Positions 8,336 through 32,449 of a stretch of DNA of 47,797 nucleotides are shown piece by piece (position 1 is the first letter of the stretch; each line of letters begins with the position of its first letter). The position numbers and the translations under genes are program-made. The notes under the pieces were generated by a model. The model searched no databases. It saw nothing but the letters and a program-made list of their open reading frames with translations, and had not been told where the DNA came from. The DNA comes from a virus (lineage: Duplodnaviria; Heunggongvirae; Uroviricota; Caudoviricetes). The stretch is from IMG/VR virus record IMGVR_UViG_2571042438_000008; one strand, 5' to 3'.

Positions 8336-8448
8336 TATTTATATAATTATAGATTTATATAAAAAGTGCTTTACGGGTGGGAAAAAATTTCCTATGGTTA
8401 TACCCGAAACCGAGCGATACCCGCCCTGGTTAAACCGGAGATAACCCG
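8336..8448 (+). promoter_or_regulatory. Promoter-leader cassette, copy 1 (AT-rich dyad motif, -35 TTTACG 8370-8375, 17-nt spacer, -10 TATGGT 8393-8398, conserved leader, GGAGA RBS)
   Basis: ~88 bp near-identical to 17311-17398 and 24189-24276 (two substitutions seen in this copy); sigma70-like hexamers with 17-bp spacing. Confidence 0.55.
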
Positions 8449-8829
8449 ATGAGCATGATTAAAATCCGCAAAAACGCTTTCCTTAAAATTCAAACTATCC
8501 TGGCTGGTTCTGTCGGCGTGATTTGCCGTTCTTCTTCAAGCCGCATCGATGACGGCTACGATGATGAGTATCGTGTGTCCTCGTGCGATGAGGCTTTAAC
8601 CTGGCTGAAGGAGAATCAGGAACGTGCCCAGGTATATCTGGAAACAGAGAACGGCAATCAGATGCTGCGTATTAGCGGTCGTTATGGATTTGAAACTACA
8701 TTCATGGCCTATTTTAATCAGGCTTACTTTGACAAGGAGCTGGCCTGGTACACTGACCGCATGAGCAAAAGCGAGCCAGCCCCGATTACACCGCCGAACA
8801 ATAAACCATTTTTATTCCTCGTTAAGTAA
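8449..8829 (+). CDS. Hypothetical protein (126 aa), first gene after cassette copy 1
   Basis: ORF with GGAGA RBS 9 nt upstream; no recognisable domain. Confidence 0.5.
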   Translation: MSMIKIRKNAFLKIQTILAGSVGVICRSSSSRIDDGYDDEYRVSSCDEALTWLKENQERAQVYLETENGNQMLRISGRYGFETTFMAYFNQAYFDKELAWYTDRMSKSEPAPITPPNNKPFLFLVK

Positions 8830-8892: not shown

Positions 8893-9166
8893 ATGACGGG
8901 TTATGAATTGAAATTATGGCGTCGTGGGATGAATTGGACGCAGGAGCGAGCCGCTGAAGAGTTTGGGATATCGTTGGCTACATATAAGCGATATGAGAAG
9001 GGTGAGCCGCCGAGGGGGCATTGAGATGGCCATTCGCGTTCTGTCGTTTGACGATATGGTTAAGGATCTTTCACACCTTGATAAAGATGCGATTCTGTTA
9101 AGGCTGCAAACCCTTGTATGGGAAAAGGTTAAAGTGTCGTCAGAATTGGAACAAGGGATCAAATGA
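8893..9166 (+). pseudogene. XRE-type HTH protein gene interrupted by a +1 frame change at a G5 run (9014-9018)
   Basis: GAGGAGG RBS then ATG 8893; HTH-like segment LWRRGMNWTQERAAEEFGISLATYKRYEKGE; frame 1 stops at 9022-9024 and the sequence continues in the +1 frame to 9166; removing one G would give a single 90-aa ORF. Confidence 0.4.
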
Positions 9167-9216
9167 TCCTTTACGGATCGTTTTATGGTGGTGTAATGTA
9201 AGCGCCAGAAAGACAA

Positions 9217-9239
9217 AAACCGCCTTGCCGGGCGGTTTT
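9217..9239. terminator. Hairpin terminator (possibly bidirectional) after the 8449-9166 operon
   Basis: CCGCC-TTGCCG-GGCGG stem-loop flanked by an A5 run upstream and T4 downstream. Confidence 0.5.
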
Positions 9240-9953
9240 CAGTCTGAAATTTAAATCTTGCTTGGTAGGCTGGATTTAAAAAGACACCTCTTGATTGGGG
9301 CGGCTTTCTTGCGTCTAAAGATAATCAAATCTTTTTGCGCCTGCAACCCCTTTTTTACTGGTGCCCATTTCAGACTCACGCTCGCGTCGTTGTCTTTGCC
9401 ACTTCGTTGGGTTCGGTGTTTTTGGGCGAAGTGGCGCGCGGGTATGCGTACAAGGGGAAAGTGTGCTGACGCAAGCCAGGAACAGCGATCTAAACTAAGT
9501 CGAGTCTGAGAAAGGCAGGAGTGCGACAACTCGCCTGTGCTCTATGAGCAGAAGAAGGTATATCAGACGACCAATGGCATGATTGTGGGCCACAGGGCGC
9601 ACACGGCGGCGAAGCATTGGAAACGATGTGGAGCTATCTGGTGGCATGAGTTCCGGTACTCGATCTCGAGCTTTTTTTGATGCTTTTGAGAAGGGGCCGG
9701 AACTCCGGTAAAGGGCACCCTGTATGGGGGGAGGGGGGGTTGTGTCTGAAGGGTGGCTATCGGTTATGGTGGAATTATGATGCGTAGAAAAGCGAGTTTG
9801 CTGCAAGCTATTGGGTCCATTATTTCTTTGTTTCCGGCAGTTGATCATTTTCGTCATATGGCGACACGTTCGAGTATGGGCTTGGCGCGTGACGCTGACG
9901 CTATTCGAAAGGATTTTCAGAAAGTCTCTGGTGTTGATAAGAGAGAAAAGAGT

Positions 9954-11399: not shown

Positions 11400-11658
11400 T
11401 CGAGGCTAATCAAATGGTGGTGAGCCGTACAGGGTTAGCCTTACCGGACACAATGACGAACCGGCGCGGATTTCTCCGCCCCTGTACGACCCACCATAAT
11501 TTGGGCGTAACAGTGCTCTACGCATAAAAAAACCGCTAACGCGGTATGCGCCATCGTGTTATTCAGGAGGCTAATCCCGGCCGTAGATTTTGCTACGGCT
11601 CGGAAAGTGTCCACCAATGGCGCATTTATGTCAATACGGCGGGATTTTAACAGAGACA

Positions 11659-11673: not shown

Positions 11674-12116
11674 TTTATTGGTAGGCAGAAACAAAAAAAC
11701 CGCCCTATTGAGGACGGTTCTTTCGTGCTGATCGGATTCGCGGTCCTTTCAGCATTACGTTGTTGTATAAACAACCACGCAAGCACAAGCAGCAAGTTAA
11801 TTTTACCCAAAAGGTAATAATAGTCCACTATTATGCTTCAAAAAATTGTGGTTCTTGTTGTGCCTGCAAACTCACAGATTGTGGGTAGGTTACTGATTTT
11901 GTGAAAATAAACGAGTTTTTTCGTTTAATTTCTTTCCTATTACTAATCTTAAAATAATCGTAAAATACCTGTGGACCTTCCCGCCGATTCGCACCCGGGC
12001 ACCGACTTTAGGGGAGGATTCTCCGTTGCCGTACATGCAAGCACAAGCAGCCGTGCTTGCTCTCGCGTTGTTTTCGTCGGTGGGGATGCCGTGAAACGGC
12101 CTGTAAGGGCCATACA

Positions 12117-12239
12117 ATGAAAAAATACTGTATGTGTATTTTTATCGTTGTTACTGGGGCTTTGTTTACGCCACATGGGGAGGGTTGGAAGATTACTGAT
12201 AACGCTCTGAATGTGACGATAAACATTAGCAGCAAGTAG
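12117..12239 (+). CDS. Small hydrophobic peptide (40 aa; MKKYCMCIFIVVTGALF...)
   Basis: ATG 12117 in an otherwise ORF-poor, hairpin-rich region; followed 7 nt later by a strong intrinsic terminator. Confidence 0.3.
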   Translation: MKKYCMCIFIVVTGALFTPHGEGWKITDNALNVTINISSK

Positions 12240-12245
12240 CGATTA

Positions 12246-12268
12246 GGCCCCTTCGGGGGCCTTTTTTT
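12246..12268 (+). terminator. Rho-independent terminator
   Basis: GGCCCC-TTCG-GGGGCC stem-loop followed by T7. Confidence 0.8.
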
Positions 12269-12278
12269 ATGGCTGAAT

Positions 12279-12461
12279 TTAAACGCTGGAGCGCATTAAG
12301 CCTTTCAGAACTGCTTCACGTACCCATTCTGGCCTGGTGGATAGCAGGGCAAATAAGCAGCCAGCTTGCAGCCGTTTGAGGTCGGTTAGACGAGTTTTCA
12401 GTAACCGTGTATATTGTTGCTCGGACATAACAAATTCCCCTTGTTGTGTCGCGACGGCCAA
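12279..12461 (-). CDS. Hypothetical small protein downstream of the partition genes
   Basis: 60-aa ORF co-oriented with parA/parG; weak. Confidence 0.3.
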   Translation of the reverse strand: MAVATQQGEFVMSEQQYTRLLKTRLTDLKRLQAGCLFALLSTRPEWVREAVLKGLMRSSV

Positions 12462-12490
12462 CAGTTGGCGCTGGAGGCCGTCACCTTCTC

Positions 12491-12739
12491 TTACTTCTGG
12501 TTGTATTGAGCCTTGAGTAACTCAAAAGACTTTGTCAGCACTTCTTTCAATGACATATCCATTGAGCTGGCGAACGTTTTGTACTCGCGTTTAAATTCAG
12601 GGTCGACGTTAAACGCCATTTGTGCCCCACCTGATTTGGTTCTGGTTGGCGTTTCAGTCGGGTCGAAAACCTGCGGTTGTTCGATCGATGGCGGTACGCC
12701 TTTGCTGTTCTTCTTTGGTGGTTTTGATGGTGCGGCCAT
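12491..12739 (-). CDS. ParG-like ribbon-helix-helix centromere-binding protein
   Basis: 82 aa; basic N-terminal tail (PSKPPKKNSKG); C-terminal FNVDPEFKREYKTFASSMDMSLKEVLTKSFELLKAQY resembles the ParG/RHH family; directly downstream of parA. Confidence 0.5.
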   Translation of the reverse strand: MAAPSKPPKKNSKGVPPSIEQPQVFDPTETPTRTKSGGAQMAFNVDPEFKREYKTFASSMDMSLKEVLTKSFELLKAQYNQK

Positions 12740-12782
12740 GTGTATCCCCTCTTATATAAATCTATAAAACTATAATTATATA

Positions 12783-13451: not shown

Positions 13452-13586
13452 GTGTTTGGTTATATAATTCTATAAATCTATATTTATAGAACGAGGTAAG
13501 CATAACCAACTTTTTGGCTGATGAAAAGCGTTTTATATAATTATATAAATCTATAATCATATAAGCGGGCGTTAGCCCGCTTGCAG

Positions 13587-14053: not shown

Positions 14054-14710
14054 TCATAACCAGTTGACAACACTAACTACGCGGCCAAGAACTTTATAAC
14101 GCTTAAATTCCTCGTTATTCAGATGCTTAGTGTTCATTTCAGCATCCCTTTCGGTTGACAGCATAACAGCATTGTCACCCGGTATGACTCTACAGTGCCT
14201 CAAAACAACCAGGCCATTTCTGTCTTCAAGGGCATAGATCCCCTCATGAATCTCTGTATCGTCTGTATTAATCAGGACTTGGGAGCCTGGGGATATTGTT
14301 GGTGACATTAACTCATCGTTGCTCTGGAGAACTGACAGAGACGATGGGTTGATGTTCTTGCTTCGTAGAATCTCCTGTTCTATCGCCAGCACTGGCTTTT
14401 CTCCGGCGTGCGATGCTATGTCATTTTTTATAGCTACAAGCCCAGGAATAACAGGAGCGTTAGTATTCTGGGGTGGGAACGGGTTATCTGTTAAGCACGC
14501 GATATAAGGCGCTGATGCTTTCAGGGCGTGCGCGATTTTCTTGATGGCAGGTATAGATGGTTGTCTTAATCCGGCCTCATAGTTCTGCAAGGTGCTTAAG
14601 CCTATTCCAGTGACTTGCTGGAGATCTCCGGCAGTCATGCCGGATTGTTTCCGTAGAGTCTGAATGCGCAGACCTATTTCTTTCTTGATGTTCTCGTCGT
14701 TGCTTTTCAT
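14054..14710 (-). CDS. CI-type prophage repressor (N-terminal XRE HTH plus C-terminal S24/LexA-like peptidase domain)
   Basis: HTH-like segment MTAGDLQQVTGIGLSTLQNYEAG; 218 aa with a C-terminal S24-type fold as judged from the translation; divergent from the cro-like gene with operators between. Confidence 0.85.
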   Translation of the reverse strand: MKSNDENIKKEIGLRIQTLRKQSGMTAGDLQQVTGIGLSTLQNYEAGLRQPSIPAIKKIAHALKASAPYIACLTDNPFPPQNTNAPVIPGLVAIKNDIASHAGEKPVLAIEQEILRSKNINPSSLSVLQSNDELMSPTISPGSQVLINTDDTEIHEGIYALEDRNGLVVLRHCRVIPGDNAVMLSTERDAEMNTKHLNNEEFKRYKVLGRVVSVVNWL

Positions 14711-14829: not shown

Positions 14830-14865
14830 CTCACGATATGTGGTTTTAATACCACGTATCGTGGT
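14830..14865. promoter_or_regulatory. Two adjacent operator dyads (CTCACGATATGTGGT 14830-14844; ACCACGTATCGTGGT 14851-14865), cro-like proximal
   Basis: Tandem dyads with 21-bp centre spacing just upstream of the 14885 start. Confidence 0.6.
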
Positions 14866-17286: not shown

Positions 17287-17404
17287 AATCTATAAATATA
17301 TAATTATAGATTTATATAAAAAGTGCTTTACAGGTGGGAAAAAATTTCCTATGGTTATACCCGAAACCGAGCGATACCCGCCCTGGTTAAACCGGAGAAA
17401 TCTG
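17287..17404 (+). promoter_or_regulatory. Promoter-leader cassette, copy 2 (dyad AAATCTATA-N12-TATAGATTT, -35 TTTACA 17327-17332, -10 TATGGT 17350-17355, conserved leader, GGAGA RBS)
   Basis: Near-identical to copies 1 and 3 over ~88 bp; 17-bp spacer. Confidence 0.55.
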
Positions 17405-18472
17405 ATGAATAAACAAGTAATTATTTCTGACTGGATCAACAACCCTAACAGCCTGTTAAGCACTGATACTGGCTACCTATTACGCCATGTTAATGGTCGT
17501 ATGGTCAAAAGCGATGAGCACGAAACCTTTTTCTTTGTTGAAGACGATGGGCGTATCTATGAGGATGGTTACTCTTATGAAGCCCAAACTGGTTGTATCC
17601 CTGCGGAGCTGGTGGACGTAACAGAAGATCTGCGCAAAGCATGGCTTGAACAGCAGCAGCGCGGAGATGATTACGTAAACACCTATCAGGAACGCCAGAA
17701 CGCGCGTCTTGCCCGATATATTGCTCGTGCAGAAAAAGCCAGAAAAGAAGGTGCGGTAGCGCATAAGCGAGCGCATGACCTGTTGGATGTGATCCCGTTA
17801 GGCCAGCCGATTTTAGTTGACCATTATAGCGCGAAAGGCCATCGCCGCCGTTTGTCTAAAGCTGATGCGTTATTCAGAAAAGCGTTTGTTGAATGCGAAA
17901 GTAAAGCATCACACTACGAGAGCAAAGCCGCAGGTGTTGGTCGTAATGGAATTTCGTCTGATGATCCTGATGCGCTATTTAAGTTGCTTCGTAAGCTGCA
18001 AGGCTGCATGAAGTCACACGTCAAAATGAAGGCCGCAAATAAGGCCATTCGCAAATACAAAAAAGACCAAATACAGCAGCTTTCTGCATTAATCGATCTC
18101 AGGTTTACAGAAAGCGAAGCCAAAGAGTTACTGGCCGGAGATTTCTGTGGGCACATCGGATTCCCTTCATACGCACTGAGCAACAATAACGCCGAAATCA
18201 AACGACTACAGAGCCGTATTAAGGAGCTTGAATCGGTCAAGTCTGTAACAGGAGCACAGCGCGAAGAATACGACGGCTTTTCTATGGAGATAGATCCAGA
18301 GGATAACCGCATCCTGTTTTATTTCCCTGGCAAACCAGAGGCAAACATTCGTTCGCTGCTTAAATCACGCGCCTTTAAGTGGAGTCCAACCCGTAATGCA
18401 TGGGTTCGCAAGATTACTCCAAACGCCCTGGCTGATGCCCGATATCTAAAAGAATCGCTATTGAAAGCCTGA
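17405..18472 (+). CDS. Large hypothetical protein (355 aa), first gene after cassette copy 2
   Basis: Start set at ATG 17405 (GGAGA RBS); the upstream ATG 17351 lies in the conserved leader. Confidence 0.6.
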   Translation: MNKQVIISDWINNPNSLLSTDTGYLLRHVNGRMVKSDEHETFFFVEDDGRIYEDGYSYEAQTGCIPAELVDVTEDLRKAWLEQQQRGDDYVNTYQERQNARLARYIARAEKARKEGAVAHKRAHDLLDVIPLGQPILVDHYSAKGHRRRLSKADALFRKAFVECESKASHYESKAAGVGRNGISSDDPDALFKLLRKLQGCMKSHVKMKAANKAIRKYKKDQIQQLSALIDLRFTESEAKELLAGDFCGHIGFPSYALSNNNAEIKRLQSRIKELESVKSVTGAQREEYDGFSMEIDPEDNRILFYFPGKPEANIRSLLKSRAFKWSPTRNAWVRKITPNALADARYLKESLLKA

Positions 18473-18504: not shown

Positions 18505-18528
18505 ATATAGAATTATATATTTATACAA

Positions 18529-18831
18529 ATGTATAAGGACGCCTCGACAATGAAACGCAAAATTATTAACCCCCAAGATGTGATTAATTTCCTGACCGAT
18601 CACCCATGTTCAAAAGTGGACGTAATCGCGGAGCACATTGGTGTGTCGCAGAACTCTATGCGTTGCAGACTGAGAAGCATGGTTGCCGAAGGACAGATAA
18701 CAACCAGGAAAATAAATGGTTGCCTGTACTACTCCGCTAAACCGGAATTGCCATTTGGCATGAATCCTAACTCCATGTTGTTTAACACCTTATTAGCCAA
18801 AGTTAAGCCGTTGAGAGGGGCTGTGGCATGA
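18529..18831 (+). CDS. Putative winged-HTH protein
   Basis: 100-aa ORF; DVIAEHIGVSQNSMRCRLRSM resembles an HTH. Confidence 0.4.
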   Translation: MYKDASTMKRKIINPQDVINFLTDHPCSKVDVIAEHIGVSQNSMRCRLRSMVAEGQITTRKINGCLYYSAKPELPFGMNPNSMLFNTLLAKVKPLRGAVA

Positions 18832-21233: not shown

Positions 21234-21379
21234 ACATTGCTTTTTTATTGATCGATTAACCACGATATGAAGGTTTTTTTATGGGGAAACCTTGTTTTAG
21301 GTGGTAACTGGGTGTAGTGTTTCATTTAACGTAGTAAAACTGCGTTAAGCGATTACCGCGTAATTTGTTGCTTTATGAA

Positions 21380-21410
21380 GCCCTGCCTTTTTCGGCGGGG
21401 CTTTTTTTTT
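21380..21410 (+). terminator. Strong intrinsic terminator immediately upstream of the lysis cassette
   Basis: GCCCTGCC-TTTTTC-GGCGGGGC stem-loop followed by T9. Confidence 0.8.
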
Positions 21411-22631: not shown

Positions 22632-22906
22632 CTGGTTTGAAGGCCGTTTTGTCATTTATTGGCACAATTATATTGGTTGCATTCGGCGCGTTTGGTTTTG
22701 GTCGTATGAAGGGGCGAGAAAAGGCCGAAGATGAAGCTGAAAAGCAGCGCATTAATGAGAATGCAGCCGCCGTAAAAGCCACTGCGGAGCGGCGTATAGA
22801 AGTGACAAAAGAGGTGGGGAATGTACATCAGAGTGTTAACCATATGGCTGATGACGATGTTGATCGCGAGCTGCGGGAGTCGTGGAAGCGTCCCGGTGGT
22901 GGTTGA
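22628..22906 (+). CDS. i-spanin (Rz-like)
   Basis: N-terminal transmembrane segment then a charged coiled-coil-like region; follows the endolysin. Confidence 0.55.
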   Translation: MTGLKAVLSFIGTIILVAFGAFGFGRMKGREKAEDEAEKQRINENAAAVKATAERRIEVTKEVGNVHQSVNHMADDDVDRELRESWKRPGGG

Positions 22907-23030
22907 TACCGCCTGTGATTGGGTAAAGCCCATCTACCTGACTGATCACGATATCGATGTTATGGACCGCCAGACAAAGAAAGATATTCTGGCTCATAAC
23001 AGGGCATGGGAAATCAACTGCCCCAAGTAA
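22821..23030 (+). CDS. o-spanin (Rz1-like lipoprotein), partly nested in the i-spanin gene in the +1 frame
   Basis: Lipobox LIASC after a hydrophobic N-terminus; starts inside 22628..22906. Confidence 0.6.
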   Translation: MYIRVLTIWLMTMLIASCGSRGSVPVVVDTACDWVKPIYLTDHDIDVMDRQTKKDILAHNRAWEINCPK

Positions 23031-23199
23031 TATATATTTCTATAATTATATAAATATATAGTTACAACATTCTATGCGCTTTTCTCATGGGCGCACGCAT
23101 CAACCATGTTTGTCTGATATGCCGCCGCGCCCAAAAATCCTGAATTTATTGGCTGGGATTTTCGTGCGCGGCGCCACACCAGACAAACAGATCAAATAT

Positions 23200-23275
23200 G
23201 GCCCCTTAGCTCAGTGGTTAGAGCAGGCGACTCATAATCGCACGGTCATCGGTTCAAATCCGGTAGGGGCCACCA
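23200..23275 (+). tRNA. tRNA with CAU anticodon (Met or Ile2/lysidine type), 76 nt including CCA
   Basis: Cloverleaf elements readable: acceptor GGCCCCT/AGGGGCC, D-arm AGCTCAGTGGTTAGAGC, anticodon loop CTCATAA, T-arm GGTTCAAATCC, 3' CCA; close to E. coli tRNA-Ile2 as recalled. Confidence 0.85.
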
Positions 23276-23482
23276 ATTCACTCTCACACATAAAGATAAG
23301 CGCGGTGGAGTTACTTCCTTCGTGCTCATCTTTATGCGTGCCTGGTGCGCATTTCGGGCGAACGTGGGGCTAAGTTACAGGCAGGGCCTGTTATCCGCAA
23401 AGGGGTAAAAGCTGGAGCGGCACGGAACTGTAGCCGTGTTACCAAAACAGCGTTGTCGGGCGATATCCGGCACACAACAGGC

Positions 23483-23515
23483 AAGGGCATTAATCAGTCT
23501 GGTTAGTGCCCTTTT
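23483..23515 (+). terminator. Hairpin in the tRNA-distal noncoding region
   Basis: AAGGGCA ... TGCCCTT stem followed by TTTTCG. Confidence 0.35.
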
Positions 23516-23583
23516 CGTTGTGTCTGCTGTAGAGCTGGCCAGCGTTATGACTGCCGGAGATCAGCGCCGGAGGCACAACTAAC

Positions 23584-24171
23584 ATGGAGGCAATTGCATT
23601 GTTTAATCTGATTTATGCAGATCCCCCCTGGGAATACAAAGATAAGTGTAAGGATGGGAATCGTGGAGCTGGTTTTAAGTATCCAACGATGAAAGCTGAG
23701 GATATTGCTCGTATTCCTGTCTGGCAGCTTGCTAATCCTGAATCGTGTTTGTTGGCCATGTGGTGGGTTCCGACTCAGCCAGAAGAAGCGTTGCTGGTGG
23801 TGAAAGCATGGGGATTCAGGCTTATGACCATGAAGGGCTTCACATGGAACAAATGTGGTAGCCGACAACCAGATAAGCTGGTGATGGGGATGGGGCATAT
23901 GACTCGTGCAAACAGTGAAGATTGCTTGTTTGCGGTAAAAGGCAAATTGCCGACCCGCCTTGATGCGGGGATCATTCAGTCGTTTACATCGCCTCGTCTG
24001 GAGCATTCTCGGAAGCCTGATGTGGTTCGTGACAAGCTGGTAAGGCTGTTAGGTGATGTTCCTCGTATTGAGCTGTTTTCTCGCGGTGATTTACCTGATG
24101 GTTGGCATGGCTGGGGCAACCAGTGCAATGGAGGTATCCAGTTGCATGATGCTCTCTGGCAAGTGGCATAA
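23584..24171 (+). CDS. MT-A70-family N6-adenine methyltransferase
   Basis: DPPW motif (LIYADPPWEY) and family-typical N-terminal layout. Confidence 0.8.
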   Translation: MEAIALFNLIYADPPWEYKDKCKDGNRGAGFKYPTMKAEDIARIPVWQLANPESCLLAMWWVPTQPEEALLVVKAWGFRLMTMKGFTWNKCGSRQPDKLVMGMGHMTRANSEDCLFAVKGKLPTRLDAGIIQSFTSPRLEHSRKPDVVRDKLVRLLGDVPRIELFSRGDLPDGWHGWGNQCNGGIQLHDALWQVA

Positions 24172-24282
24172 AATTATATAATTATATATTTATATAAAAA
24201 GTGCTTTACAGGTGGGAAAAAATTTCCTATGGTTATACCCGAAACCGAGCGATACCCGCCCTGGTTAAACCGGAGAAATCTG
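24171..24282 (+). promoter_or_regulatory. Promoter-leader cassette, copy 3 (-35 TTTACA 24205-24210, -10 TATGGT 24228-24233, conserved leader, GGAGA RBS)
   Basis: Near-identical to copies 1 and 2. Confidence 0.55.
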
Positions 24283-24552
24283 ATGAAAGTACAAGACCGT
24301 GAAGTAGTAAAAAACCTCCTGCAATACCTGACCTCAAAAAACCTGACGGGCAGCGTTGAGTTCCGTGAAGCGTTAAAACATTTCAACGTCACTACGGTTT
24401 ATCGTTGGGAAAACAAACATTCTGAAAGACCGTATGTGGTGGATGTTTTTGCGCCTGATATTGAGTGCGGTTTTGAGCGTCATTCGTTCAAGGAGAAACA
24501 TTCTGCTGATTTTTTTTGTGAGGTTGTATGTGCGGCAGGAGATGATGAGTGA
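24283..24552 (+). CDS. Hypothetical protein (90 aa), first gene after cassette copy 3
   Basis: Start set at ATG 24283; the upstream ATG 24229 lies in the conserved leader. Confidence 0.5.
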   Translation: MKVQDREVVKNLLQYLTSKNLTGSVEFREALKHFNVTTVYRWENKHSERPYVVDVFAPDIECGFERHSFKEKHSADFFCEVVCAAGDDE

Positions 24553-24749: not shown

Positions 24750-24771
24750 ACCGTAACGATAACGAACAACG

Positions 24772-24798
24772 AGCCTCGGCAATTGCCGGGGCTTTTTT
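24772..24798 (+). terminator. Intrinsic terminator
   Basis: AGCCTCGGC-AATT-GCCGGGGCT stem-loop followed by T6. Confidence 0.8.
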
Positions 24799-25463: not shown

Positions 25464-25470
25464 TCTTACA

Positions 25471-25499
25471 GCCTCGCGGTGTCGCGGGGCTTTTATTTT
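25471..25499 (+). terminator. Intrinsic terminator
   Basis: GCCTCGCG-GTGT-CGCGGGGC stem-loop followed by TTTTATTTT. Confidence 0.75.
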
Positions 25500-28168: not shown

Positions 28169-28888
28169 GTGGCTGACAGAATTGAGATAAAGATGGATTT
28201 TTCTTCTCAGGATATTCAACGACAACTCCAGCGCCTTGAAGAACGCGAATTGCCGTTCGCAATGGCGCTTGCGGCAACCAGAACGGCAAAGGCTTCTCAG
28301 GCTGCGATTAAGAATGAAATTAATCGGGTATTTGACAGGCCCACGCCGTGGATTCAGAACTCTACTTACGTTTTGGCCGCAAAGAAGAGTGATCCTACAG
28401 CCATTGTGTATGCTCGTGAATGGGGAGGAACGCCAGCCCCTGTAACGTTGACTCCGCAAATCGAAGGTGGACAACGACAGTACAAACGCTCAGAAGGGGC
28501 GCTAAGGGCTGGTGGATATTTGCCTAACGGCTGGCAGCTTGCTCCTGGTCCCGGTGCAAAGCTGGACAAATACGGGAATATTTCGCGGGGGCAATTACAG
28601 CAGGTCTTATCTGGCCTAAGAGTTCAGCGAGATGCGCATCAAAATCGCCGTCAGGGCAAGCCTACGGAGTTTTTTGTTGTTCGACCTGGTACAAGTAACC
28701 CGCTTCAACCAGGCGTCTGGCAGCGCGTTGGGCGGCGTCCTACGTTGATCCTTACGTTTATCCAGCAACCTAACTATTCGCAGCGTCTTGATTGGCATGG
28801 CGTGGCGCTGCGTGCTGGTGAGGATGCGTTTGCTGATGAAGTCACAAAGGCTATTGATGACATTCTTTCTAAGACTTTCTCTCGTTAA
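28169..28888 (+). CDS. Hypothetical protein
   Basis: 239-aa ORF after the ParB-methyltransferase fusion. Confidence 0.45.
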   Translation: MADRIEIKMDFSSQDIQRQLQRLEERELPFAMALAATRTAKASQAAIKNEINRVFDRPTPWIQNSTYVLAAKKSDPTAIVYAREWGGTPAPVTLTPQIEGGQRQYKRSEGALRAGGYLPNGWQLAPGPGAKLDKYGNISRGQLQQVLSGLRVQRDAHQNRRQGKPTEFFVVRPGTSNPLQPGVWQRVGRRPTLILTFIQQPNYSQRLDWHGVALRAGEDAFADEVTKAIDDILSKTFSR

Positions 28889-30036: not shown

Positions 30037-30587
30037 TGGCCATCGTCAGTAAGTCAGAGTTTGCCCGCCGGAAAGGTATTTCTCCGGCAATGGTTACGAA
30101 GCTCTGTCGTTCCGGTCGCATTCCAGTGCTGAAAAGCGGCAAGCTGGATTTTGATAAAGCCAGTGCGGCTTATGAAGCGAGCCGACAGGTTGGTCGTGAG
30201 GTATCTGCTGAAAATGGAAAAAGAGGGCATGGGATATCTTCGGAACAACCAGAGTTACCCGCTGATGATGCCGGATTAGCTGGTGGTACTTCCGGTGTTG
30301 CGGTGCAATTCAACAAGGCTAAGACCGCAGAAAAAATTTATCAGGCAAAGCTGAAACGCCTTGAATTTGAAGAAAAGGAAGGCTCTCTCATCGCTAAAGA
30401 TGCGGTCAGGGATGATGCATTTCTGGCAGCTAATGAATTGCGTAGCCGCTTATTTAGTATTGCTCCAAGAGCAGCTCCCCGTTGTGAAGGCAAAACAGCC
30501 AGGGAGATCGAACGCATTATTGAAGACGAGATTAATTTTGCGCTTCAGGCGCTCCAGGAATCCCGATTTATTAAGCAGGAAGAATAA
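30027..30587 (+). CDS. Terminase small subunit (Nu1-like, putative)
   Basis: N-terminal HTH-like SKSEFARRKGISPAMVTKLCRSGRIP; directly upstream of the large terminase; alternative start ATG 30036. Confidence 0.6.
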   Translation: MQVMAIVSKSEFARRKGISPAMVTKLCRSGRIPVLKSGKLDFDKASAAYEASRQVGREVSAENGKRGHGISSEQPELPADDAGLAGGTSGVAVQFNKAKTAEKIYQAKLKRLEFEEKEGSLIAKDAVRDDAFLAANELRSRLFSIAPRAAPRCEGKTAREIERIIEDEINFALQALQESRFIKQEE

Positions 30588-30592
30588 ACCTC

Positions 30593-32449
30593 ATGGGCGA
30601 AACAGTATGGAGCACCGCTTTTTTCCGTGCGCTTCGCCCTAAATCACGGCTAACTGTTTCCGAATGGGCTGATAAGTATCGTCATGTAGCGCCGGGAACG
30701 TCTCCAGAGCCAGGGCCGTGGCGTACAAGCCGAGTGCCATATTTGCGTGAACCAATGGATGTTATTGGTGACGCTGATACAGAAACAGTAGTGATGCAAT
30801 GTAGCTCGCAAATTGGTAAATCCGAATTACAGCTAAATGTTATGGGTTACTTTGCAGATCAGGAGCCATCTCCTCAGTTGATGATTTATCCAACGGTAGA
30901 GGCGGCTGAGGCTTTTTCAAAGGAGCGTATTGATCCGACGTTCAAATATTCCCCTGGTTTGAAACACAAGCTGCATGAAGGGAAAGAGGGGCGCGGTGCA
31001 GCCAAAAAGTCCAGCACGACTATACGTATGAAGCATTACGCTGGTGGATATATAGCACTTGTTGGTGCTAATTCCCCAGCAGGTCTTGCATCCAGGCCAA
31101 TTCGAATACTGTTAGCTGATGAGATTGATCGTTACGGTGTGACGCAGGAGGGCGACCCACTAAAACTAGGTATTCAGCGTACTACCAACTTTCATAATCG
31201 TAAGAAAGTTTTTGTTTCTACTCCTGTTTTGGAGGAAACGAGCAAAATCCACAAGTGGTTTAAGCTCTCCGATCAGCGTTACTACCATGTTCCTTGCCCA
31301 TGTTGTGGCACCATGCAGGTGATGAAATGGTCGCAAGTCAGATGGGATAAGAGCGATTCAGGTGAGGCGTTACCGGAAACGGCCAGATATGAGTGCTGTG
31401 AGTGCGGCGGGATTATGCGCGGATCTGGTAAACCAGACGTTGATTGGTTGGCGAAGGGGGTATGGATAGCTGAACATACTGGAGTTAAAGGTATTGTTGG
31501 TTTTCATATTAACAGTCTTTACTCCCCGTGGGTTGCATTGTCAGAGCTGGTTGAAGAATTTACGGAAGCAACCAGAAACCGCGATAAAAATGGATTAATG
31601 GAGTTTATTAACCTTAAGCTGGGTGAGCCATGGAAAGAGGATGCTAAAGACGATATCGATCCTGAATACTTGTTGCAACGCAGAATAAGGTTTGAAGAGT
31701 TTTTACCAGATGATGTTTTATTGTTAAGTGCTGGTGTTGACGTACAGGACACGTATTTAGTTTGTGAATTGGTCGGTTGGGGAAAAGGTAAGGAGTCATG
31801 GGGGATAGAATATAAAATATTCCCAGGTGATCCCGCACAAGATGTTGTCTGGAAACAACTTGATGAATACTTACTCCGTAGCTGGTCATTCCGTGACGGT
31901 CGAAAATTACAGATTTCTTCCGTTTGTATTGACTCTGGTGGGCATTTTACGACAGAGGTATATCGCTTTACTAAGCCGAGAGAATCAAGGCGAATATACT
32001 CTATCAGGGGGCGTGGTGGGGTAGGTTTACCGTTTATAGGAAAGCCAAGTAATAATAACCGTGTGGGTGCTATGTTGTTTAATTTGGGGGTTGATGATGG
32101 TAAAGGGACCATCATGGCAAGAATTAAACTACATGATCCTGGTCCTGGTTATATGCATTTCCCATTAGATTCTGACAGAGGATATGATACCGAATACTTT
32201 AAAGGATTATTATCAGAGAAGAAAATATTTGAATATAAAAATGGGCAGACAAAAGAAAAGTGGGTAAAAGTCTACGAGCGTAACGAGCCTCTTGATTGCC
32301 GTAACTATGCAACTGCCGCGATGGAAATTCTGAACCCTAATTTTAACTGGCTTGCCGAACAGGAAATGCGAGGTAATGTGTATGTGCAGAACTCGTCAGG
32401 TATACGTAGAAGACGCCGTAGAGTTATAAGTAAAGGCGTAACCATATAG
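30593..32449 (+). CDS. Terminase large subunit (lambda gpA family)
   Basis: 618 aa; gpA-like motifs in the translation (VSEWADKYRHV..., LADEIDRY); position before gpW-like and portal. Confidence 0.85.
   Translation: MGETVWSTAFFRALRPKSRLTVSEWADKYRHVAPGTSPEPGPWRTSRVPYLREPMDVIGDADTETVVMQCSSQIGKSELQLNVMGYFADQEPSPQLMIYPTVEAAEAFSKERIDPTFKYSPGLKHKLHEGKEGRGAAKKSSTTIRMKHYAGGYIALVGANSPAGLASRPIRILLADEIDRYGVTQEGDPLKLGIQRTTNFHNRKKVFVSTPVLEETSKIHKWFKLSDQRYYHVPCPCCGTMQVMKWSQVRWDKSDSGEALPETARYECCECGGIMRGSGKPDVDWLAKGVWIAEHTGVKGIVGFHINSLYSPWVALSELVEEFTEATRNRDKNGLMEFINLKLGEPWKEDAKDDIDPEYLLQRRIRFEEFLPDDVLLLSAGVDVQDTYLVCELVGWGKGKESWGIEYKIFPGDPAQDVVWKQLDEYLLRSWSFRDGRKLQISSVCIDSGGHFTTEVYRFTKPRESRRIYSIRGRGGVGLPFIGKPSNNNRVGAMLFNLGVDDGKGTIMARIKLHDPGPGYMHFPLDSDRGYDTEYFKGLLSEKKIFEYKNGQTKEKWVKVYERNEPLDCRNYATAAMEILNPNFNWLAEQEMRGNVYVQNSSGIRRRRRRVISKGVTI

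Follow-up and report, generated by a model that had tools for sequence, protein, structure and literature searches.

The window, that is, the whole stretch of 47,797 nucleotides that was analysed, is a ~48-kb circular phage-plasmid with a myovirus-type tail and RepA/ParA plasmid maintenance. Phage-plasmids of this family are often met in clinical E. coli, and the reference strain ATCC 25922 has one too, NZ_CP009073.1, whose copy of the locus is 95% identical over the 308 nt that follow the tRNA. Membership in the pSLy3 phage-plasmid group was ruled out, as pSLy3 measures 114 kb and is part of the SSU5 supergroup. The locus examined here begins behind a lysis cassette of two holins, a GH108 endolysin and an Rz-like gene, which ends at 22906, with an embedded lipoprotein ORF reaching 23030. 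The annotation thus places the tRNA gene between the lysis cassette and the MT-A70 methyltransferase gene, as the original prediction had it. The features of the locus are as follows.

23031–23060, no strand: AT-rich, operator-like palindrome of 30 bp, an inverted repeat with 15-nt arms that are 93% complementary
23107–23189, + strand: long imperfect hairpin of 83 nt, an inverted repeat with 34-nt arms, ending 10 nt before the tRNA
23200–23275, + strand: gene assigned to tRNA-Ile2, anticodon CAU, CCA encoded (ARAGORN, Rfam, comparison with ileX and trnI)
23285–23340, + strand: hairpin with 25-nt arms (inverted repeat; comparison with relatives L015, 2567–2705, and L003, 2362–2490)
23377–23472, + strand: conserved noncoding core with three small hairpins (23377–91, 23419–40 and 23455–71)
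23473–23522, + strand: predicted intrinsic terminator with an upper stem-loop at 23483–23513, the tail TTTTCGTT and a lower extension, CACAAC/GTTGTG
23516–23583, + strand: rydB-like leader, ending at the MT-A70 ribosome-binding site
23584–24171, + strand: MT-A70 family DNA methyltransferase gene, annotated start 23584, directly after the leader

The true start of the MT-A70 gene is probably the TTG at 23599. Specifically, in the relatives and in a Yersinia phage record the protein begins (MFNLIYADPPW) at the site that corresponds to 23599, and GGAGG at 23586–90 precedes this TTG.

Two features upstream of the tRNA are absent from the original prediction. The palindrome at 23031–23060 belongs to a set of eight intergenic sites that carry a TATATAAATMTATA-type motif with a period of 8 bp, for which 29 matches were found against 0.6 expected, and the block 23030–23075 matches the Salmonella relative at 45 of 45 aligned positions; the palindrome may serve as an operator or promoter. 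The hairpin at 23107–23189 is kept in three lineages at only 69–79% sequence identity, with compensatory changes in 5 of 32 pairs, and no T-run follows it on either strand. It may act as an RNA processing site of the RNase III type.

Downstream of the tRNA, about 308 nt (23276–23583) separate it from the MT-A70 gene without a conserved ORF. All stop-to-stop frames were compared across four lineages, the window and three diverged ones, and none survived, each being broken by stops or frameshifts, start-less or nearly all-nonsynonymous, in agreement with the original view that 23276–23580 holds no credible ORF. A long minus-strand frame, open in three relatives, is interrupted by a stop codon in the window. 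It lacks an ATG, its single GTG has no Shine-Dalgarno sequence, and almost every substitution in it is nonsynonymous. A 325-nt stretch folds at z = -5.2 relative to shuffles. In the relatives, the counterpart of the hairpin at 23285–23340 is the basal stem of a larger closed RNA module, 'G', of which the inner ~100 nt are missing here. The segment had been described as ~300 bp of structured noncoding DNA following the tRNA. It is indeed noncoding and structured, but it is more than the tail of the tRNA: because relatives that lack the tRNA keep this downstream DNA, sequence comparison identifies 23276–23583 as an independent module rather than a tRNA trailer. In line with this, the order of core, terminator, leader and MT-A70 is kept in all three diverged lineages, with or without the tRNA.

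The conservation of this module is concentrated in the core and the leader. The conserved block 23377–23480, which runs 8 nt into the lower stem of the terminator, is 94.2% and 90.4% identical to two diverged lineages, compared with 72% and 70% for the adjoining MT-A70 CDS; core and leader together range from 90 to 96%, against 70–72% for that CDS. Against the Salmonella relative, the core (23377–23480) and the leader (23506–23577) stand at 93–94%, where the genome-wide median is 75%. Both fall in the top 1% of 100-nt windows genome-wide, and the core is one of only six 100-nt stretches in the genome with at least 93% identity to that relative. Changes in the core are wobble-compatible, bar three single-sequence mismatches. 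Its hairpins are invariant or changed on one side only, and real covariation among the three diverged lineages is limited to the terminator.

Wider searches returned little beyond these lineages. At permissive thresholds, Rfam gave no match to the core in the window region or in the relatives, and the only matches in the region were sub-threshold rydB and meaningless miRNA-type hairpins. BLAST and nhmmer did not find the noncoding block in about 100 loci with MT-A70 homologues of 63–78% identity, drawn from IMG/VR and from one genome per species, and exact-pattern scans of IMG/VR and metagenomes returned near-identical copies and three chance matches only. Covariation power is therefore limited to the three lineages. 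Elsewhere in the window, nothing relevant was found in the way of core copies or of boxA/nut-like or ops-like sites. A 16-nt identity between 23547–23562 and the CDS of an XRE repressor (14623–14638, minus strand) is not kept in the Salmonella relative and was taken as a chance match.

The hairpin that had been noticed at about 23483–23515 lies at 23483–23513, and it appears to be more than a hairpin. It has 14 pairs (5 of them G-C), is followed by the U-rich tail TTTTCGTT and scores as terminator-like, with a U-tract that is interrupted (UUUUCGUU). The relatives have a different stem, 36 nt longer, on the same base and with the same tail, and six stem pairs show compensatory changes on both sides. 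In the alignment, 96.9% of terminator cells are paired, compared with 34–50% when the partners are slid, and none of 500 shuffles reaches the observed values. The hairpin is therefore a predicted intrinsic terminator with a covarying stem. A search for a conserved antiterminator pairing that would compete with the upper stem found none; the lower extension GUUGUG alone could pair in two ways, with CACAAC at 23473 or with the copy at 23574. Four more + strand terminators, at 14831, 21377, 24771 and 25470, lie in the same co-directional gene array, so that read-through control appears to be a general feature of the element. No known antitermination protein or late activator was detected in a scan of 20 proteins from the early region and the neighbourhood, of which ten were compared with PHROGs and the other ten with Pfam.

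Between the terminator and the MT-A70 start, the leader is predicted to fold into a closing helix GUUGUGUC/GGCACAAC, a small GCU/AGC hairpin and a hairpin of the form CCGG-A-G-AUCAG-C-G-CCGG. In the alignment of this leader, pairing holds in 99% of cells and every common polymorphism is wobble-compatible; those in the helices are G-C/G-U/A-U interchanges that preserve pairing only in the + strand RNA. Much the same three-part fold appears to be present in rydB, a 68-nt E. coli sRNA encoded between ydiH and sufA, with a closing helix, a small hairpin and the hairpin CCGGAGAUAAGCGCCGG. The leader thus resembles rydB at a score below threshold: the Rfam model (RF00118) gives 22.5 bits in the window and 25.7–29.1 bits in relatives (29.1 in L004), with E-values from 1e-4 to 0.07, where the gathering score is 50. 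Conversely, a model built from the leader (R1) finds chromosomal rydB with 26.1 bits and an E-value of 2.6e-4 under a rough calibration. The rydB core GCCGGAGAUAAGCGCCGG is identical in the relatives and has one mismatch in the window, where the loop carries C in place of the A of rydB. Among most members of the rydB-like family this 19-nt core is the same, and the closing helix differs by compensatory changes. The arrangement differs in that rydB precedes its own terminator, whereas the leader follows a terminator and is itself followed by a ribosome-binding site.

These features together give an attenuator-type layout, with a conserved structured domain directly 5′ of a terminator and a downstream gene. 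No sigma-70-like promoter was recognised in 22700–23900, and the next promoter-like sites lie from 24163, at the end of the MT-A70 gene, and at 24205. Transcription would mostly end at about 23515–23522, and MT-A70 expression would need read-through of the terminator, since there is no promoter on the stretch from the terminator to the gene. Such a requirement would make the leader region, made up of the ~100-nt structured core, the terminator and the rydB-like three-helix element abutting the MT-A70 ribosome-binding site, a transcriptional checkpoint or attenuator that separates the methylase from the lysis/tRNA unit. Its most likely, if unproven, role is that of a cis-acting RNA checkpoint in front of MT-A70, and the high conservation of core and leader is in keeping with this. 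More distant MT-A70 homologues (63–77% identity, about 100 loci) lack the leader element.

The core and terminator (about 23350–23520) could instead constitute a trans-acting small RNA that base-pairs with host or phage mRNAs, released from the tRNA precursor or a longer transcript in the manner of the glyW-cysT-leuZ 3′ external transcribed spacer or of DicF. The hairpin with its U-rich tail is like the 3′ ends of enterobacterial sRNAs, the very high conservation of sequence and not merely of structure is typical of seed-dependent sRNAs, and the same element bears three bona fide sRNA-family members, ryfA, C4 and isrK; P1, moreover, has a dicF-like region and tRNAs in one operon leader. However, the three lineages share no conserved promoter in front of the core, and a U-tail as short and broken as this one would bind Hfq poorly. 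A duplex-energy scan of core and leader against the whole element gave no outlier target (best z about -3.7 among 4694 windows, as chance predicts). Conservation also continues unbroken past the terminator and through the leader to the MT-A70 ribosome-binding site, as would sooner be expected of a cis element. We consider an sRNA rather unlikely on this evidence.

Still less probable is that conservation acts on the DNA, as a platform for a protein (a late activator, a repressor or a ParB-type protein) or as the boundary of a recombination module. The unit of tRNA, leader and MT-A70 is flanked by AT-rich palindromes, at 23031 and 24175, of a type seen at six further intergenic sites, the modules that precede the core have been shuffled between lineages, and three ParB/Srx-domain proteins are encoded shortly downstream, all of which would be consistent with such a platform or boundary. 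Against it, the sequence of the terminator stem has been replaced, yet its pairing and the + strand U-tract are kept, and the common polymorphisms keep G-U pairs that are C/A mismatches on the other strand, a distinction meaningless for duplex DNA. Additionally, neither the core nor the leader has a segment that is found again in the window, as a repeated binding site would be. We thus retain the cis-acting RNA checkpoint as the preferred reading of the downstream module.

The tRNA gene itself is complete. ARAGORN finds a single tRNA in the window, at 23200–23275 on the + strand with anticodon CAT, and the Rfam tRNA model matches over its full length (1–71) with 67 bits (E 9.8e-14), well over the gathering score of 29, so that the two programs bear out the 76-nt tRNA originally described and speak against a pseudogene. 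The 3′ end is ACCA, encoding the CCA, and U8, A14, G18G19, U33, A37, GTTC and A58 are all present. It is the same as E. coli ileX at 68 of 76 positions and as P1-type trnI at 72 of 76, in keeping with the likeness to tRNA-Ile2 originally proposed. The acceptor stem (GGCCCCU/AGGGGCC) and D-arm are those of ileX. So is the anticodon stem-loop (loop CUCAUAA, pairs 28–42 to 31–39) except for pair 27:43 at the top of the stem, a G27/A43 mismatch as in P1 trnI where ileX has G27-U43. The T-stem differences from ileX are compensatory, and the variable loop differs. In E. coli, pairs 4:69 and 5:68 are identity elements for TilS, being C:G and C:G in tRNA-Ile2 and U:A and A:U in tRNA-Met (PMC11947777). 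The phage tRNA carries C4:G69 and C5:G68. All BLAST matches are annotated as tRNA-Ile, including RefSeq records identical to the window, and none in 5426 E. coli genomes carries a tRNA-Met annotation.

An elongator tRNA-Met is the label given by ARAGORN and by three phage GenBank records, on the anticodon alone, and phage tRNAs as counter-defence are a known idea, by which the gene would mainly be a decoy or replacement against host anticodon nucleases. Both are very improbable here. The metT and metU tRNAs differ from the phage tRNA in the acceptor stem (GGCUACG), in D-loop length with a 17a nucleotide, and in the anticodon stem (CAUCA/UGAUG), where it matches ileX, pair 27:43 apart; the TilS identity pairs are present; and while ATA exceeds the host sample 6.5-fold, ATG shows no rise, at 23.7 per 1000. 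The original prediction held that sequence alone cannot decide between Met and Ile, which was too cautious: with the ileX-type acceptor stem and D-arm, an anticodon stem-loop that departs from ileX at pair 27:43 only, the TilS pairs and the tRNA-Ile annotations, the sequence largely settles the matter. By these comparisons, the gene is a probably functional tRNA-Ile2 of the P1 trnI/E. coli ileX type and not a tRNA-Met, with C34 presumably converted to lysidine and the tRNA hence charged with Ile. The suggestion that it marks a former attP or ancestral integration target can be dismissed almost entirely, for although tRNA genes are common integration sites and the first 42 nt are the same as in ileX, the element replicates as a plasmid (repA, parA) with no integrase annotated in the identical 48-kb records, the tRNA gene is full-length with its own CCA, its mismatches to ileX fall in the 3′ half, the part in which attP and attB would normally agree, and its closest homologue is in P1, another non-integrating phage-plasmid.

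Codon usage is consistent with a role of this tRNA in AUA decoding. ATA occurs at 15.7 per 1000 codons overall and, as the proposal of AUA supplementation had anticipated, is elevated in the element, at 24.9 in tail genes and 18.4 in head genes compared with 7.0 for the early genes and 2.4 for 50 kb of host chromosome, the sample that served as the host codon reference. The tRNA-less Salmonella relative has 10.1 in head genes, 14.9 in tail genes and 10.1 overall, ATA thus being ~40% rarer in the same genes, and relatives without the tRNA evidently persist. The high ATA may simply follow the low G+C of the tail genes, since AGA is also elevated, ~8-fold above the host sample (10.1 vs 1.2 per 1000), without a phage tRNA-Arg, and since the major capsid gene has no ATA at all. 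ATA usage therefore fits supplementation by the phage tRNA but is confounded with G+C.

We propose that the tRNA is most likely part of a longer + strand transcript that enters from the lysis cassette or from beyond it, and that it is freed by RNase P and 3′ trimming, with the hairpin at 23107–23189 as an upstream processing site; co-transcription and processing would be in keeping with this layout. No sigma-70 promoter of its own is recognisable for the tRNA, and the timing of its expression is for this reason something that we infer. Host TilS would then convert C34 to lysidine, so that the tRNA is charged with Ile and reads AUA, raising the supply of the host's scarcest Ile tRNA during translation of the AUA-rich packaging, head and tail genes.

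Taken together, our preferred reading, to which we assign a probability of roughly 55%, is that the locus combines a tRNA-Ile2 for AUA codons with a separate cis-acting RNA leader that acts as a transcriptional checkpoint or attenuator before MT-A70. That a phage should bring along a copy of its host's rarest isoleucine tRNA is routine, and the gene is already annotated in the RefSeq copies, and the main value of this result lies in correcting the 'tRNA-Met' label of anticodon-only tools and phage GenBank records. The more useful result is the unannotated ~210 nt beside it, among the six most conserved stretches of the phage-plasmid family. A bolder and doubtful extension is that core, terminator and rydB-like leader together are a phage cis-regulatory RNA of a kind not described before, of which rydB would be the domesticated remnant. 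If so, a factor-independent (put-like) or ligand- or protein-sensing switch would time the methyltransferase and perhaps the downstream late genes, and the orphan sRNA rydB would have come from a phage module, as ryfA, C4 and isrK homologues sit in the element. The leader allows experiments in a standard strain, both on late or methylase gating in this family and on the origin of the function-poor sRNA rydB.

Among known systems, the closest is trnI of P1, annotated 'tRNA-ile2 (CAT)', which has the G27/A43 mismatch in common with the tRNA here and is likewise carried by a phage-plasmid. It belongs to the C1-controlled ban operon, whose long, structured and largely noncoding leader includes a dicF-like region, tRNA-Asn and tRNA-Thr, and in both phage-plasmids a DNA methyltransferase gene adjoins the tRNA region (dmt in P1). 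The two share the hairpin motifs ACACAACAGGYAAGGGCATT and GCCGGAGATCAGCRCCGG, which at 18–20 nt are not individually significant (E 0.001–0.06), and the conserved core was not found in P1. Additionally, trnI lies upstream of the ban helicase gene in an early operon with three tRNAs in all, whereas the single tRNA here lies between lysis and late genes. The chromosomal ileX and ileY of E. coli, whose lysidine-modified products read AUA, have the same acceptor stem, D-arm, anticodon loop, A73 and TilS pairs; they differ in the variable loop, in the compensatory changes of the T-stem and at pair 27:43, and the copy here is plasmid- or phage-borne.

The Shiga-toxin phage 933W, a temperate coliphage, carries the rare-codon tRNAs ileZ, argN and argO, with its CAU tRNA-Ile2 copy near the late antitermination/lysis region and read as rare-codon supply, and Stx-converting phages are among the 80–90% matches to the tRNA. 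Phages of the 933W type are integrating lambdoid phages with a known Q/tR′ system and carry Arg tRNAs too, of which there is none here despite the elevated AGA. Unlike in lambda, no Q-, N- or put-like component was identified in the 20 proteins scanned against PHROGs or Pfam, and the lysis genes lie upstream of the terminator here but downstream in the lambda checkpoint. The proposed leader nevertheless resembles the lambda pR′-tR′/6S RNA checkpoint in that a short structured transcript would end at an intrinsic terminator before late genes, and, like that checkpoint and other terminator-containing leaders, it sits in a long co-directional operon with several terminators.

The gap between the lysis cassette and the MT-A70 methyltransferase gene is a chain of structured elements:

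23031-23060, AT palindrome of 30 bp, between the lysis cassette and MT-A70
23107-23189, imperfect hairpin of 83 nt, between the AT palindrome and the tRNA
23200-23275 (+), tRNA with anticodon CAT
23285-23340, hairpin of 56 nt, between the tRNA and the core
23377-23472, core, between the 56-nt hairpin and the terminator-like hairpin
23483-23513, terminator-like hairpin, followed by TTTTCGTT
up to the MT-A70 ribosome-binding site, leader of 65 nt, the last element

The outer frame of this spacer is kept, and its middle varies, in three diverged lineages: two Salmonella plasmids (L003 and L004) and one contig from IMG/VR (L015). In the Salmonella plasmids the tRNA is absent and 350-650 nt of other helix-closed modules stand in its place; L015 has such modules plus a tRNA with 85.5% identity to that of the window. 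The hairpin at 23285-23340 is what the window has of one module of the relatives: its base, without the interior. Because the lineages keep the frame and swap the middle with or without a tRNA, the tRNA behaves, in this sequence comparison, as one cassette within a modular noncoding spacer whose distal part is independent of it. The extra modules (~130-170 nt each; L003 2130-2500, L004 1835-2500, L015 2165-2710) lie between the long hairpin and the core, have no Rfam match, and are shuffled, lost or gained from lineage to lineage.

The tRNA is the only one that ARAGORN calls in the window; with an Rfam score of 67 bits (threshold 29) and an encoded CCA, it is complete, as originally predicted. 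ARAGORN and phage GenBank records label it 'tRNA-Met' on the anticodon alone, and the original prediction held that sequence cannot settle Met versus Ile. Alignment with ileX, the E. coli tRNA-Ile2 gene that reads AUA via lysidine, versus the elongator tRNA-Met genes metT and metU decides the matter. The tRNA agrees with K-12 ileX at 68 of 76 positions. Acceptor stem, D-arm, anticodon loop and all but one of the five anticodon-stem pairs are identical, and the eight differences are confined to the variable loop, T-loop and T-stem, where the T-stem changes are compensatory. In contrast, metT and metU differ from it in the acceptor stem (GGCUACG), D-loop length and anticodon stem. The main identity elements of E. 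coli TilS are pairs 4:69 and 5:68 (PMC11947777). Both are C:G in this tRNA and in ileX, whereas tRNA-Met has U:A and A:U at these positions. In a search of 5426 E. coli genomes, all matches listed carry the annotation tRNA-Ile. The closest relative (72/76) is trnI of P1-type phage-plasmids, annotated 'tRNA-ile2 (CAT)' in the curated P1 record at 89% identity to ileX; both share a G27/A43 mismatch atop the anticodon stem, a caveat on the Ile2 assignment. By alignment, this is a real tRNA, Ile2 rather than Met and predicted to be lysidine-modified. As such it is unremarkable, belonging to a known type (P1 trnI, ileX), and in RefSeq copies of the element it is already annotated.

Codons were counted in 52 intact CDS of an identical record mapped onto the window, with 42 genes of one 50-kb E. 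coli chromosome stretch as the host sample.

ATA per 1000 codons, and share of Ile codons
All 52 CDS: 15.7; 24.7%
Early genes: 7.0; 12.7%
Lysis genes: 8.0; 12.5%
MT-A70 to ParB block: 7.3; 13.5%
Head genes: 18.4; 30.3%
Tail genes: 24.9; 33.5%
E. coli host sample: 2.4; 4.2%

The anticipated rise in AUA use is present in the tail and head genes relative to the early genes and the host sample. In a Salmonella relative without the tRNA (NZ_LN890526.1), ATA stands at 10.1 (head) and 14.9 (tail) per 1000, ~40% below the window. A codon-supply role of the tRNA is supported at the level of correlation. A simple adaptive reading is weakened because AGA is also raised ~8-fold over the host sample though the phage has no tRNA-Arg, the major capsid gene has zero ATA, and the ATA-rich genes are those of low G+C (0.33-0.42).

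Two circular E. coli plasmids of ~48 kb (NZ_CP020497.1, NZ_CP020518.1) are 100% identical over 701 nt around the tRNA locus, and the 49-kb Yersinia phage genomes vB_YpM_39, 41 and 44 are 99% identical over 701 nt; the locus is also present in 69 further complete E. coli genomes and in the ATCC 25922 plasmid. The identical record is annotated with repA, parA, a RelE/ParE toxin pair, an XRE repressor and a long + strand early-gene array, then lysis genes (two holins, a GH108 endolysin, an Rz-like gene), the tRNA, the MT-A70 methyltransferase, ParB/Srx-domain proteins, terminase, portal, capsid and a P2-like contractile tail. From this annotation we conclude that the element is a phage-plasmid. 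The suggestion that the tRNA marks an integration target fails: the element is a plasmid, no integrase is among the annotated genes of the identical record, the tRNA gene is complete, and its mismatches to ileX lie in the 3' half. A 69-aa ORF that is missing from the annotation (22821-23030, +) has a lipobox (LIASC), overlaps the last part of the Rz-like gene and runs past it. It probably encodes the o-spanin (Rz1 equivalent), which would place the end of the lysis cassette at 23030 instead of 22906.

Downstream of the tRNA, the description of 23276-23580 as noncoding with a hairpin stands. There is no conserved ORF, the + strand frames being broken or frameshifted in relatives. A long minus-strand frame was rejected as a gene, having no plausible start and almost exclusively nonsynonymous changes. 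The segment is more interesting than first thought, and we infer its function from the following features.

Identity to the window in L003 and L015
Core, 23377-23480: 94.2%; 90.4%
Leader, 23506-23577: 95.8%; 91.5%
Adjacent MT-A70 CDS: 71.7%; 69.8%
Long hairpin, 23107-23189: 79%; 69%

Genome-wide against a complete Salmonella relative, 100-nt windows have a median identity of 75% and a 99th percentile of 91%, and the core is one of only six places reaching 93%. Other stretches at or above 93% are 9161-9561, 12401-12511, 28651-28751 and 30501-30671; the first, inside a gap with no annotated genes beside a Rha-family gene, may hold another regulatory RNA or site.

Base pairing is kept as well. 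In relatives the terminator stem is a different stem, 36 nt longer, on an unchanged base and tail; across 13 distinct variants, pairing holds in 96.9% of cells versus 34-50% in slid controls, six pairs are changed on both sides, and none of 500 shuffles matches these values. In the long hairpin, 32 pairs are maintained, 5 of which show compensatory changes, with sequence identity at 69-79%. The three core hairpins are invariant or show A-U/G-U/G-C interchange only, bar three single-sequence mismatches, and in the 8-bp closing helix of the leader (GUUGUGUC/GGCACAAC) four pairs vary on one side only, all wobble-compatible. Because G-U pairs are meaningful only in + strand RNA, there is modest evidence that the constraint is on RNA. 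GUUGUG has two possible partners: it would extend the terminator by pairing with CACAAC at 23473, or close the leader by pairing with the CACAAC at 23574. For the upper terminator stem, no alternative pairing was found. The leader hairpin loop (23558-23563) reads GATCAG in the window and a few identical records, which creates a GATC site and, in the minus-strand frame, a TGA; in most family members it reads GATAAG. An exact 16-nt identity connects this hairpin (23547-23562) to the XRE repressor gene (codons 25-30; 14623-14638, -); the Salmonella relative lacks it, and we regard it as coincidence.

No sigma-70-like promoter was found in 22700-23900, and the next ones start from 24163 and 24205, at or just past the MT-A70 end near another AT palindrome; MT-A70 expression therefore seems to depend on transcription passing the terminator. 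Within 23584-23601, the RefSeq MT-A70 start, ATG 23584, lacks a Shine-Dalgarno sequence and is out of frame in the Salmonella relatives; the start used in relatives and in the Yersinia phage record corresponds to TTG 23599, 8 nt past GGAGG. Four other strong + strand terminator-like hairpins (14831-14864, 21377-21404, 24771-24794, 25470-25491) break the co-directional gene array, so regulated read-through, implying antitermination, is probably a general strategy of this phage; the one at 21377 lies 20 nt ahead of the holin start codon, a placement similar to lambda tR'. No antiterminator protein was recognised among the neighbouring proteins scanned. We propose that the tRNA would be cut from a longer transcript and supply AUA decoding for late genes, and that core, terminator and leader may form a cis-acting checkpoint ahead of the methylase. 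The main rival to such a checkpoint is a processed trans-acting sRNA; a DNA-level protein site is less likely.

AT-rich palindromes of 8-bp units (TATATAAATMTATA-like) occur at eight intergenic sites (8340-8361, 12753-12766, 13461-13490, 13534-13555, 17289-17318, 18506-18535, 23031-23060, 24175-24196), with 29 pattern matches versus 0.6 expected and two directly upstream of parA. They resemble dispersed operators, of which those of P1 C1 are an example, or centromere-like sites such as the scattered centromeres of N15. A ~110-bp module comprising an AT palindrome, TTTACA-N17-TATGGT (TTTACG in the first copy), a conserved 5' UTR and a gene start is present at 8340-8470, 17289-17420 and 24175-24300, beginning the genes at 8449, 17405 (DUF3560) and 24283; its three near-identical copies suggest that one regulator may drive three separate units.

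Matches over the Rfam gathering scores, to C4 antisense RNA (11413-11501, -; 70.8 bits), isrK (11526-11599, -; 68 bits) and ryfA (11971-12267, +; 141.8 bits), indicate what appears to be a P1/P7-type RNA-based immunity region with a ryfA-type locus. Near their tRNAs, P1-type plasmids have 18-20-nt matches to the leader hairpin and to the terminator base, which are not individually significant. In these plasmids, three CACAACAGGTAAGGG...CCCTTACCGTTGTGAT hairpins surround tRNA-Asn and tRNA-Thr (L088 61-150, 499-590, 711-790; L157 2002-2020), one enclosing a T-arm-like GGTTCGAATCC, and a sub-threshold STnc100-like match is also present. The Rfam model of rydB, an E. coli sRNA, gives the leader 22.5 bits (window) and 25.7-29.1 bits (relatives), with a gathering score of 50; conversely, a leader-only covariance model recovers chromosomal rydB, located between ydiH and sufA (26.1 bits, E 2.6e-4 in 215 kb), which nhmmer also detects (E 0.0015). 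The hairpin GCCGGAGAUAAGCGCCGG is identical between rydB and the relatives, with one mismatch in the window, and the closing helix is compensatory. This resemblance is reciprocal but sub-threshold, and the leader is not filed as rydB; the likeness is made more plausible by the above-threshold ryfA, C4 and isrK family members that the same element holds.
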